From IMG/VR virus record IMGVR_UViG_2690316115_000016: a stretch of 5,929 nucleotides of DNA; one strand, written 5' to 3'. Below are positions 1 through 3,000 of the stretch, piece by piece. Positions within the stretch are counted from its first letter, which is position 1, and each line of letters begins with the position of its first letter. The position numbers were made by a program. This DNA comes from a virus (Duplodnaviria; Heunggongvirae; Uroviricota; Caudoviricetes).

Positions 1-3000
1 ATTTTCAAGAACCGTTCTGACAGCTTCGGCTTTGAACTCTTTAGAGTAACGTTGGGTTTTTCTGCTCATTATTAGCTCCTTCTGATGCCATTCTATTTCA
101 GGAAGGAGTGTCCGTTAAACTCAGGCTACCTCAAACATCCTGAAAGGTTTACTCGACTCTCTTATCCACGCCGGATTTGCGGAAGACGACGAGCAATTCG
201 ATGACATTCGCGTAATTCGCGGCGTGAAAGTGCCTGGCGGTAGAGTGGGGATAAAAATCACCGAACTGGAGAACATTTGATGAATGCTAAAATTCAAACG
301 ATACCTGAATTACTGATCTGCACCAGGGGAAATCAGACAGAAGTCGCCAGAATACTGAACTGCAATCGTGCTACAGTCAGAAAATACATTGATGATAAAG
401 ATGCGAAAAAGCACGCCGTCGTCAATGGCGTCCTTATGGTTCATCGCGGATGGGGTAAAGATACTGATGCGTGATATCCGGCAGGTTCTTGAGCGCTGGG
501 GGGCATGGGCGGTAAATAACTATGAGGATGTTACATGGTCGCCCATTGCTGCCGGATTTAAGGGACTGATCCCCGAAAAAGTAAAATCACGTCCACAGTG
601 CTGTGACGATGATGCGATGGTGATATGCGGGTGCATAGCCCGCCTTTACCGGAACAATCGCGATCTGCATGACTTGCTGGTTGATTACTACGTGTTGGGG
701 GAGACGTTCATGGCGCTGGCACGGAAACATGGGTGCTCTGACACCTGTATAGGTAAACGCCTTCACAAAGCGGAGGGGATTGTTGAAGGCATGCTGATGA
801 TGCTGGGAGTGAGGCTTGAGATGGATCGGTATGTTGAGCGTGAATTGCCGGGAGGGAGAAGCTCTGTATTTTATCAGCGAAAAAATAGTTTACGATCGTA
901 AAAATCTGCATATCATGATAAGAGTGGTTACATTGCCACGCAGCCGAACCCGCCGATGCGCGGGTTTTTTTGTACCCAGAATCCTGTGAGCTATACGGAA
1001 AGTACACAGAAAGGAAGGTACGACCGCAATTAATAACAAAATCTTAAAAATCTCATATGGCACTATTAGTTTTCTAAATATTGTATATTTTAAGTATTGC
1101 AGGATAACCCTGTAACGAAGTTTGCGTAACAGCATTTTGCTCTACGAGTTTGCCAGCCTCCCCTGGTGGCTGGCTTTTTTTGTATCCGTTCAACGGGAAT
1201 GTTACATACCTCACAATTAAGTCAGTTGAATGTTGTCTGCCCGGATGAGAATTTGTTAGAAAAAACTGCATGGTGAATCCCCCTGAGCGGAGGGGCGACT
1301 GGTGACGGTATAATCTCTGATTATCAAAACGAGAATGACGCGGGTTTAGTGGCACCGGGCTGAACTCACCGGGAGGCACCCGGCACCATGCAATGGCACA
1401 TAGCGCCACTCTCCAGCCCCTCTCCGGAGGGGCTTTCTTATGGACAAAAAAGCCCGCGCTGGGAGACGCGGGCGGCAAGGAATGAACAATGAAACGTGAA
1501 GTAATATTTCAGCTGGCGAATAATACCCCATAGTAATCACTCTGCGCAACTGCGCGACCTTTTTCGAATTGCGGGCTGTAGTCTCCCTTCTGCCATTGTC
1601 CTGTAACTTCCGGACTTCAGCCCGCTCCTTATTTTACTCACAATATTATCCCGGCCGGGAGGATTCATGGCATTTAAACACTATGATGTTGTCAGGGCGG
1701 CGTCGCCGTCAGACCTTGCGAAACGAATAACTCAAAAACTGAAGGAAGGGTGGCAGCCTTATGGTAGTGCGCTGATTTCGACAGCTGGTTATGGTGCGGA
1801 GTTCATCCAGCCAGTTGTGAGTGAGGGGAGCATCTCATCACCAGAGGAGCCAGGCAACCGTCCGACGACCTCAGCGCCTTCTGTTGCGCCAGAATATTAC
1901 TATGTGATCGCGCTTGCTGGTCAGTCCAATGGTATGTCATACGGTGAGGGACTGCCATTACCGGATACATTCGACAGCCCTGATCCACGTATTAAACAGT
2001 TAGCGCGTCGCAGTACGGTGACACCGGGCGGTGCAGCATGCAAATATAACGACATCATTCCGGCGGACCATTGTCTGCATGATGTGCAGGACATGAGCCG
2101 TCTTAACCATCCGAAAGCGGACCTGTCAAAGGGGCAGTACGGAACCGTGGGGCAGGGGCTGCATATCGCCAAAAAACTGCTGCCGTTTATACCGGCGAAT
2201 GCGGGCATTCTGCTGGTTCCGTGCTGTCGTGGTGGTTCAGCGTTCACCACCGGAGCTGATGGCACATACAGTGACGCGAGTGGCGCCTCGGAGAATTCAA
2301 CCCGCTGGGGTGTGGACAAGCCGCTGTATAAGGACCTTATCGGTCGAACAAAAGCGGCACTGGAGAAGAACCCGAAAAATGTGCTGTTTGCCGTGGTGTG
2401 GATGCAGGGGGAATTTGATTTTGGCGGTACGCCGGCAAATCATGCCGCACAGTTTGGTGCGCTGGTTGATAAATTCCGTGCAGACCTGGCGGATATGGCA
2501 GGCCAGTGCGTCGGTGGCTCTGCTGGCGGTGTTCCCTGGATATGCGGGGACACGACGTATTTCTGGAAGCAGAAGAACGAATCCACGTACCAGACGGTGT
2601 ACGGCAGCTATAAAAATAAAACGGAAAAGAATATCCATTTCGTACCGTTCATGACCGATGAGAACGGGGTGAATGTGCCGACGAACAAACCGGAAGAAGA
2701 CCCGGACATTCCGGGTATCGGTTATTACGGTTCGAAATGGCGTGACAGCTCAGCCACCTGGACGTCACAGGACAGGGCGAGCCATTTCAGTTCATGGGCT
2801 CGCCGTGGGATTATTTCCGACCGTCTGGCAACGGCGATTCTGAGCTGCGCGGGTAAGTCTTCTGCGTTTGTTAATGGTACTGCCGGGGTGGTTGTTCCAG
2901 ACAGACCGGTTACCACCTCAGAGTCTGTAATTTTTTACGATGCCAAAAAAGCTACAGACAATCAGCTGAAACCCTATGGCTGGGACGGTGTGTATGGCAG

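Follow-up and report, generated by a model that had tools for sequence, protein, structure and literature searches.

Two probable convergent prophage small RNA genes of known type at a GC-rich hairpin cluster upstream of nanS-p

We analysed a 5,929-nucleotide stretch of the viral record IMGVR_UViG_2690316115_000016 (Caudoviricetes), referred to here as the window, whose host element is a lambdoid, Stx-phage-like prophage without stx. A GC-rich hairpin cluster at 1270-1480 probably (probability of about 0.8) represents two prophage small RNA (sRNA) genes of known type that converge tail to tail in the moron site between Q/pR' and nanS-p. The flagged region would comprise the 3' two-thirds of the plus-strand gene and the 3' end of the minus-strand gene. 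A preliminary description of the window had offered a small RNA as one reading of the cluster, and this reading is borne out by two RNAs, one through an STnc100 match and the other through identity to EcOnc08/EcOnc21. The cluster is real but ordinary: STnc100 is already in Rfam, and the convergent-sRNA layout was published in 2014. Tree et al. (2014) described convergent sRNA pairs in Sp3, 4, 5, 9, 10, 11, 15 and 17, in the moron site downstream of Q/pR', with the moron CDS to one side and a conserved phage ORF to the other.

The three inverted repeats that had been reported for 1270-1480 were all located:

1280-1284 with 1291-1295, plus strand: helix H1, CCCC(C)UGAGCGGAGGGG, the first flagged inverted repeat
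1415-1422 with 1427-1434, plus strand: the second flagged repeat, AGCCCCTC/GAGGGGCT, followed by TTCTTATG
1452-1458 with 1467-1473: the third flagged repeat, GCCCGCG/CGCGGGC, with an A-run at 1446-1451

A terminator scan of 850-1750 returned 6 terminator-like sites compared to 1.0 ± 1.1 in shuffled sequences. The RNA of 1268-1445 folded at −72.3 kcal/mol, below the −60.3 ± 4.2 kcal/mol of shuffles (z = −2.9). As described earlier, the last hairpin has its U-tract on the minus strand only, where the A-run reads UUUUUU. The region also probably has no credible ORF, as described earlier. No conserved ORF was seen, and the overlapping ORFs of the ORF listing are mechanical only:

1074-1478, minus strand: mechanical ORF of 134 aa with a TTG start
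1346-1549, minus strand: mechanical ORF
1388-1492, plus strand: mechanical ORF

An Rfam search, one of the checks suggested in the preliminary description, matched STnc100 (RF02076) over the full model. Window positions 1240-1445 on the plus strand aligned to model positions 1-206 of 206, with a score of 165.1 bits (cut-off, 47 bits; E 2.8e-38). All RF02076 consensus helices are present in the alignment and in an unconstrained minimum-free-energy fold, namely the closing helix, CCCCC/GGGGG, GGGUU…AACUC, CCGGG/CCCGG and the 3' terminator hairpin. The first two flagged hairpins correspond to helix H1 and the intrinsic terminator of an STnc100-type RNA. The plus-strand gene would extend from ~1268 to ~1442 (~175 nt) and consist of a structured domain, a short variable linker and the terminator. 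Besides H1, the domain contains the following elements:

1268-1391, plus strand: structured 5' domain of the STnc100-type RNA, ~124 nt (Rfam alignment)
1268-1275 with 1384-1391, plus strand: closing helix P1
1310-1315 with 1319-1324, plus strand: variable hairpin V, not conserved, which includes a TATAAT as an arm
1342-1349 with 1360-1367, plus strand: helix H3
1369-1373 with 1379-1383, plus strand: helix H4, with the loop AGGCA
1299-1304 (CUGGUG) with 1353-1358 (CACCGG, in the H3 loop), plus strand: proposed pseudoknot, spanning 1299-1358

The minimum-free-energy fold reproduced P1, H1, H3 and H4, and our own covariance model scored the 5' domain at 101 bits. The covariation check, also suggested earlier, was performed as pair counts in 97 distinct homologues, with diverse homologues taken from IMG/VR. 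We observed strong compensatory change in P1, H1 and H3. Paired cells made up 91.2% compared to 79.1% after shuffling (0 of 500 shuffles reached the observed value), and 17 pairs were altered on both sides, including 8 of the 8 pairs of H3. Slid controls of the pair count gave at most 51% paired, and separate computed pairing tests agreed with the pair counts.

These compensatory changes extend across phages of Klebsiella, Salmonella and E. coli, which argues against the hairpins being non-functional debris of recombination or of stx moron loss. The debris explanation draws on the stx site of the window being "empty": similarity to the Stx1-phage DNA that lies upstream of stx1A stops at ~1184, and similarity to DNA downstream of stxB resumes at ~1198. 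However, the element is found with or without stx, 2512 of 5426 complete E. coli genomes carry it at up to 11 places each, and its orthologues are expressed. We therefore consider debris a very improbable explanation. The earlier proposal that the cluster is 3' structure left over from a lost upstream gene is likewise unsupported. Compensatory evolution in the plus-strand helices opposes it, and the minus-strand terminator is part of a convergent sRNA gene that is conserved and has Hfq-bound homologues.

The pseudoknot was assessed by comparing cognate with non-cognate duplexes rather than by pair counting, because variant classes in the model-based alignment are offset from one another by one column in helix register. 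Cognate duplexes were more stable (mean −11.6 kcal/mol) than non-cognate duplexes (−7.4 kcal/mol; 49 distinct combinations, P = 1e-18, Mann-Whitney). The H4 hairpin (CCGGG-AGGCA-CCCGG), flanked by GGCACCA, was almost invariant, even among elements found via the 5' anchor. The RF02076 consensus line does not draw the pseudoknot, and the near-invariance of H4 is likewise not part of it.

A 5' domain this large and highly conserved is unexplained by a simple seed-plus-terminator sRNA model. We tentatively raise the possibility, which we hold to be the less probable case, that the ~124-nt domain is a conserved pseudoknotted module that binds a structure-specific partner (a protein, RNA polymerase or the ribosome) and has a role of its own in temperate Enterobacterales phages. 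The features that point to a partner-binding module are P1, the pairing of the post-H1 linker with the H3 loop, and the near-invariant, GGCACCA-flanked H4. Such a role may lie, for example, in late-operon transcription, mRNA fate or host-factor titration. If this were true, the modular 3' tails would be later additions that give different Hfq sRNAs (STnc100, EcOnc27, PasD).

A chiefly cis-acting function of the domain on the late transcript, with the sRNA species of lysogens as by-products, is unlikely. Such an element could serve put- or nut-like antitermination, processing or stability, or the binding of a protein or RNA polymerase for nanS-p and the lysis genes. Its placement would fit a cis role, as the element is nearly always co-oriented, with a Q gene of any family (PF03589, PF06530 or DUF1133) on one side and a gene for a holin or nanS, again of whichever family, on the other, and there are contigs in which 2-4 copies stand in tandem upstream of the lysis genes. 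A domain conserved far above the apparent need of a scaffold, with its constant H4 and covarying pseudoknot, would fit as well. However, some variants lie downstream of a cI-like repressor, outside the late leader, and HK022 putL/putR and phage lambda gave no sequence or model match. Constitutive self-antitermination is disfavoured because most copies have their own terminator within ~57 nt and because lysogens accumulate the orthologues as discrete RNAs bound by Hfq.

The preliminary description had also pointed to a perfect TATAAT at 1309-1314. The hexamer is present, but we attach no significance to it, as the window contains 1 copy compared to 1.64 expected by chance. Its counterpart in hairpin V is AAAAAT in 933W and TATGAT in VT1-Sakai, and it is absent from other variants. 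A real promoter here would offer a perfect −10 hexamer on the correct strand and could drive either a shorter RNA (~1321-1442) or nanS-p with the hairpins as its leader. This is highly improbable: the site has no −35 partner at 16-18 bp and no TG extension, it was not listed by the promoter scan, and two plus-strand terminators (1415-1442 and 1543-1563) intervene before nanS-p. The TATAAT is most likely incidental. The suggestion that the cluster forms a structured 5' leader of nanS-p survives only in a passive sense, in that Q-modified late transcripts must cross it and the minus-strand RNA runs antisense to the leader of nanS-p.

For the STnc100-type RNA, the candidate promoter and the 3' elements are as follows:

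1233-1262, plus strand: candidate weak sigma-70 promoter, read from sequence, with a −35-like TTGTCT at 1233-1238 and an extended −10 TGtTAGAAA at 1254-1262
1392-1414, plus strand: linker from the domain to the terminator, a variable modular 3' tail where the seeds of related sRNAs lie
1415-1442, plus strand: intrinsic terminator of the STnc100-type RNA, AGCCCCUC-UCCG-GAGGGGCU then UUCUUAUG (terminator scan and end of the Rfam model)
1543-1563, plus strand: second terminator-like hairpin, UGCGCAACUGCGCG then ACCUUUUUCG (terminator scans)

The start of the RNA is predicted at ~G1268. This position matches PasD2, for which RNA-seq placed the 5' end at the G of GCAUGGUG. Among 138 unique homologues, 24% had a sigma-70 promoter with a score of 9 or more that ended 7 nt before UGGUG, compared to 0% at a control offset; the window's own candidate did not pass a simple promoter scan of the window. 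The predicted terminator has an 8 bp stem with 6 G-C pairs, and its U-tract (UUCUUAUG) is poor. A strict terminator was found in 97 of 145 homologues at a median of 57 nt past the core; a control stretch upstream had one in 26 of 145. Promoter and terminator placement in the homologues predicts an RNA of ~175 nt. Because orthologues are longer than this on Northern blots (~222-247 nt), the RNA may in fact begin near 1200 or be a processing product of longer transcripts.

The 3' tails are swapped among homologues, and PasD-type tails were observed on intact domains in three of them (L173, L187 and L167). The 3' end of PasD2 (GGCTGCGCATTGCGCAGCCTTTTTTTT) aligned at the second hairpin, 1543-1563, where PasD sRNAs stop (alignment A2). 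A genome-wide scan for the 15-base pattern GCATGGTGAATCCNCC gave only chance matches in unrelated phyla.

The third flagged hairpin belongs to the minus-strand gene, which is of the EcOnc08/21/42 family and would start near or inside the 5' end of nanS-p:

1446-1473, minus strand: intrinsic terminator of the minus-strand sRNA, GCCCGCG-UCUCCCAG-CGCGGGC then UUUUUU (terminator scan)
1474-1480, minus strand: seed CCUUGCC, directly 5' of the terminator
1446-1638, minus strand: predicted body of the sRNA, antisense to the nanS-p leader
1645-1673, minus strand: promoter-like site (ATGCCA, 17 nt, GATAAT), a consensus match with a putative function

The predicted terminator has 8 counted pairs, of which 7 are G-C, followed by UUUUUUGU. 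In EPEC it matches the 3' end of the sRNA E2348C_1409.E2348C_1408.IGR, and in Sakai Sp4 that of the EcOnc08 Hfq peak; the Hfq peaks of EcOnc08 and EcOnc21 both map onto this minus-strand stretch. Identity to EPEC PP6 and Sakai Sp4 was ~96% over 1340-1700 (alignment A2), and the CCUUGCC seed is identical in the two prophages (L005 and L006, respectively). The seed is complementary to the GGCAAGG/GGCAGGG motif of the RIL-seq targets of the EPEC homologue, which include cfa, tir, emrA and others. The fold z-score of the predicted body was only −1.5. Its 5' end may lie at ~1638, from the promoter scan and the 182 nt reported in EPEC, or at ~1716, from the ~271-nt EHEC Northern; these published sizes disagree. 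The promoter-like site overlaps the nanS-p start codon and Shine-Dalgarno sequence.

A Q gene of the PF06530 type lies upstream and nanS-p, holin, lysozyme and Rz genes lie downstream, with matching synteny in 933W, VT1-Sakai, Sp4 and EPEC prophages. STnc100 matches occur at the equivalent place after stx2B in 933W, after stx1B in VT1-Sakai, and in Sakai Sp4 and EPEC prophages. pR' and its two annotated terminators, at ~889-972 and 1150-1182, precede the STnc100 unit. Judging from orthologues, each RNA would be made in lysogens from its own weak promoter, Hfq would bind and stabilise both, and both would pair with targets in trans. The RNA of the minus strand is additionally antisense to the nanS-p leader. 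The two terminators (1415-1442 on the plus strand and 1473-1446 on the minus strand) abut, 3 nt apart. Placed back to back, they should stop unmodified RNA polymerase from both sides, and Q-modified polymerase from pR' would read through to nanS-p and the lysis genes.

The closest relatives of the plus-strand RNA are STnc100 copies in pathogenic E. coli. EcOnc27 of E. coli O157 Sakai, the same RNA as sRNA103 of EDL933, is the copy after stx2B; it is Hfq-bound, measures ~235/247 nt on Northern blots and is destabilised without hfq, and its Hfq CRAC peak spans the 3' 80 nt. In EDL933, 11 STnc100 copies are transcribed, one of them confirmed by Northern blot. The window copy shares with STnc100, EcOnc27 and sRNA103 its helices, its orientation and its position after the moron and before nanS-p, but it lies in an stx-less site and has its own variable hairpin V and 3' tail.

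PasD1 and PasD2 (EPEC E2348/69) and EcOnc13 (Sakai Sp3) occupy the same locus, between Q and the sialate esterase gene. PasD is related to STnc100, and Zhu, Shabalina and Storz (2026 preprint) proposed a common ancestry. PasD and the window copy have in common the 5' end GCAUGGUGAAUCC, H1, the pseudoknot-type pairing and H3. PasD departs from the window copy in that H4 is reduced, the tail is different and bears the seed UGUGAG, and the RNA ends at the position of window 1543-1563. PasD scored 28 bits with our model and 41 bits with Rfam, below the cut-off. We rejected a PasD identity for the window copy, which is STnc100 proper.

The relatives of the minus-strand RNA, EcOnc08/EcOnc21/EcOnc42 (EHEC) and the EPEC IGR sRNA, are unnamed candidates that have no Rfam family. 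They are ~96% identical to the minus strand over 1446-~1640 and share the terminator and CCUUGCC. Similar to AsxR and AgvB, the window's minus-strand RNA converges on STnc100, with an abutting terminator, downstream of the moron. However, RF02703 and RF02702 gave no window match even at E up to 10, whereas 933W carries an AsxR/AgvB match of 88 bits at the equivalent place (L001:1737-1789, minus strand). The conserved ~42-nt 3' region of AsxR/AgvB (…UAUCUCAUGCAAUUGCCCGAACCCACUCGGGCUUUU) is absent from the window, and the predicted length of the window RNA is much greater. We regard this RNA as analogous to AsxR/AgvB in position and not as a family member.

We compared the STnc100-type RNA with other phage RNAs. 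HK022 put RNAs are also structured phage RNAs, located at the start of operons that must be transcribed through terminators, and share with the window RNA a hairpin of the GCGGGUUCAG…CUGAAC type. They differ in having a two-stem V-shaped fold of ~73 nt with a triplex, whereas the window RNA is a P1-closed multi-helix pseudoknot. Put membership was rejected on comparison with putL (L247, minus strand, ~28300-28228), with no STnc100 or own-model match in HK022 and no motif match. Transcripts from pR' to tR' (lambda 6S RNA; StxS of Stx phages) are likewise short, terminated RNAs of the lambdoid late regulatory region that can act as sRNAs, but the STnc100 gene of the window is a separate unit downstream of pR'. 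A phage lambda homologue was rejected, as only a 25-nt stretch (CAGTGCTCTTTCCGTTGTGCTGAAT) is common with one variant class and no model match was found. A tRNA remnant was rejected: Stx phages carry ileZ-argN-argO nearby, but ARAGORN detected no tRNA in the window. The conserved UGGUGAAU was considered as a sigma-dependent pause element of a phage-82-type pR', in which a −10-like element lies near +9 to +14, GCC at +15 to +17 and the pause at +25; these published positions do not fit.

The analysis gives a sharper structural model for STnc100/PasD RNAs, with a covarying pseudoknot, an invariant hairpin, modular tails and promoter placement. SNPs in the orthologous copy directly after stx2B were recently reported as predictors of HUS, and the window RNA has medical interest by this association. 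The results are also useful to annotators: the hairpin stretch is left without features in the PGAP record for an E. coli locus of identical sequence, and some annotation sources put spurious small ORFs on it.

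The window spans the late regulatory region and lysis genes of a lambdoid prophage. In order, it contains Q, a promoter-like site with two terminators, the GC-rich hairpin region (1270-1480), nanS-p, holin, lysozyme and Rz, with IS fragments at both ends. The features are as follows:

End at 901: Q antiterminator, PF06530 type
889-916: promoter-like site (TTTACG, 16 nt, TATCAT), overlapping the end of Q
946-972: terminator, 3' of that promoter-like site
1150-1182: second annotated pR' terminator
1543-1563, plus strand: terminator-like hairpin, where PasD RNAs end
1571-1583 with 1613-1625: 13-nt inverted repeat within the nanS-p leader
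1673-1645, minus strand: promoter-like site from the scan (ATGCCA, 17 nt, GATAAT)
1667-3577: nanS-p
4467-5000: lysozyme, with holin and Rz genes, downstream of nanS-p

Segment 889-972 was ~97% identical to VT1-Sakai DNA whose annotation gives a putative late promoter, a Q-utilisation site and the first pR' terminator. It is probably pR'/tR', from which a short StxS-like transcript would arise. Homology to the Stx1-phage DNA that lies upstream of stx1A extends only to ~1184, and from ~1198 onwards the match is to DNA found downstream of stxB. Judged by this homology, the window is a Shiga-toxin moron site left "empty", where a mere ~14 nt stand in place of stx1AB and its promoter. An identical copy of 1200-1500 is present in E. 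coli FORC_069, flanked by an "antiterminator Q family protein" and a "SASA family carbohydrate esterase"; the FORC_069 annotation has no feature between these two genes.

The hairpins are genuine, and known families already account for them. All three inverted repeats of the preliminary description, and its TATAAT (1309-1314), were recovered at their positions, and its small-RNA option agreed with Rfam: 1240-1445 on the plus strand is a full-length match to STnc100 (RF02076; 165 bits vs a cut-off of 47, E = 2.8e-38). The first hairpin is helix H1 of the STnc100 model and the second is the STnc100 terminator; a terminator scan confirmed that the U-tract of the third lies on the minus strand. 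Terminator-like sites in 850-1750 numbered 6 vs 1.0 expected from shuffles, and the 1268-1445 RNA folded 2.9 standard deviations better than shuffles. The TATAAT, which had been highlighted as notable, contributes the 5' arm of a variable small hairpin (1310-1315 with 1319-1324), which is altered or missing in homologues. As a promoter it is unlikely, being a single copy vs 1.64 expected, with neither a -35 element nor a TG extension.

We observed STnc100 matches at the equivalent place 3' of stx2B in 933W, 3' of stx1B in VT1-Sakai, and in Sakai prophage Sp4 and EPEC prophages. EcOnc27, identical with sRNA103, is the copy that follows stx2B; it has an Hfq CRAC peak, runs at ~235/247 nt on Northern blots and loses stability in a delta-hfq strain. 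EDL933 has 11 transcribed STnc100 copies, one confirmed by Northern blot; STnc100 RNA has been found in outer membrane vesicles of STEC, and a 2026 preprint linked PasD sRNAs to STnc100. Published orthologue sizes (222-247 nt) exceed the predicted ~175 nt, and the plus-strand promoter of the STnc100-type RNA in the window is weak. A RIBO-seq study reported ribosome footprints on some copies. A 34-codon plus-strand ORF (1388-1492) has its AUG within the 3' strand of the closing helix P1, 11 nt past the GGGAGG of H4; this AUG is missing from many variants (CACCACAC), and the ORF is therefore not conserved.

Two exact-motif scans of IMG/VR returned >120 loci each. A covariance model (R1) built from 45 representatives matched 131 elements (97 distinct) across 100 loci. 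Pairing was kept across the 97 distinct homologues, with standard pairs in 91.2% of cells vs 79.1% in shuffles, a level that 0/500 shuffles reached. The covariation score was 0.369 vs 0.147 in shuffles (<=0.089 with slid partners). Both-sided changes at 17 pairs, including compensatory change at 8/8 pairs of H3 and 5/8 of P1, make it unlikely that the hairpins are debris. H4 (CCGGG-AGGCA-CCCGG) was nearly constant, also in elements found only via the 5' anchor. The linker after H1 (1299-1304) is complementary to the H3 loop (1353-1358), and cognate duplexes were more stable than non-cognate ones (-11.6 vs -7.4 kcal/mol, p = 1e-18). We propose that they form a covarying H-type pseudoknot, which the Rfam STnc100 consensus line does not include; among the compared loci L127-L286, its helix is as long as 11 bp in certain variants (e.g. 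L136, L170). Both small-RNA families are already known, and the pseudoknotted 5' domain is the remaining point of interest.

In 24% of unique elements, the end of a sigma-70 promoter (score >=9) lay exactly 7 nt before UGGUG, vs 0% at the control offset. A strict terminator followed 97/145 elements (median 57 nt downstream; upstream control stretch, 26/145), with a convergent terminator in addition in 36. The 3' tails are modular, with PasD-type tails on intact domains. The gene upstream was a Q (three families), TerB, a methylase, stxA or a cI-like repressor, and the one downstream a holin (also three families) or nanS. Phages carrying the element include those of Klebsiella, Salmonella (Fels-1) and E. 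coli.

Tandem arrays of 3-4 STnc100-type elements, ~250 nt apart, lie upstream of lysis genes in some viral contigs (L142:370-993; L150:1723-2346; L181:4377-5465; L134:2321-3353), and several of these elements have their own terminator. A divergent paralogue with H4 of ACCGG-GAA-ACCGG scored 33 bits with R1 (L141:3371-3483; also L158, L172, L177 and L192). PasD2 (L004:1655-1761) was a weak match (28 bits): it retains P1, H1, H3 and the pseudoknot-type pairing, but its H4 is reduced. R1 found no element in HK022 or lambda; the lambda late leader (L248:1046-1070) has only a 25-nt stretch in common with one variant class.

As to the minus strand, eight prophages of Sakai have "convergent sRNAs" between the moron CDS and the conserved phage ORF, according to Tree et al. 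2014. The partner in 933W is AsxR, lying directly against the STnc100 end. Rfam gave no AsxR/AgvB match in the window; this identity for the third hairpin was rejected, with the conserved 3' block also missing. Segment 1340-1700 was ~96% identical to Sp4 and EPEC prophage PP6. In Sp4, the Hfq peaks EcOnc08 and EcOnc21 lie on the minus strand, running from the terminator in the direction of nanS-p (RNA of ~271 nt by Northern blot). The EPEC counterpart, E2348C_1409.E2348C_1408.IGR, is estimated at 182 nt; its RIL-seq partners include the cfa 5' UTR, dppA and tir, and their motif GGCAAGG is complementary to CCUUGCC directly before the sRNA terminator. This seed is also in the window (complement of 1474-1480). 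An RNA from the promoter-like site at 1673-1645 would be ~193 nt and antisense to the nanS-p leader, which is almost invariant and doubles as the predicted body of the minus-strand sRNA.

Beyond the family membership, fold, covariation, terminators and synteny observed here, the orthologues suggest that lysogens make both RNAs, that Hfq binds them and that they act by base pairing. To judge from the layout, the two terminators, with 3 nt between them, would block unmodified polymerase from either side, and Q-modified polymerase from pR' would read through both. A simple sRNA model does not account for the elaborate, conserved 5' domain. A primarily cis-acting, put-like or nut-like role for it is improbable and drew no support from any test here.

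A terminator-ended element (…CCGCCAGCUUCCAUUCCUGCCGCUGGCGGCUUUUUUU) lies on the minus strand between nanS-p and the holin region (3578-3720). It aligns positionally to the EPEC PasA sRNA gene with partial similarity (promoter region, terminator), and Rfam gave only a weak Esr41 match; it is likely a PasA/PasC-family variant. The same prophage segment in FORC_069 is free of IS at the points matching the window ends. By eye, these ends are starts of transposase-like ORFs, MSRKTQRYSKEFKAEAVRTVLEN (1-69, minus strand) and MTKNTRFSPEVRQRA (5884-5929, plus strand), which we take to be IS3-family orfA, the latter presumably resembling IS629.
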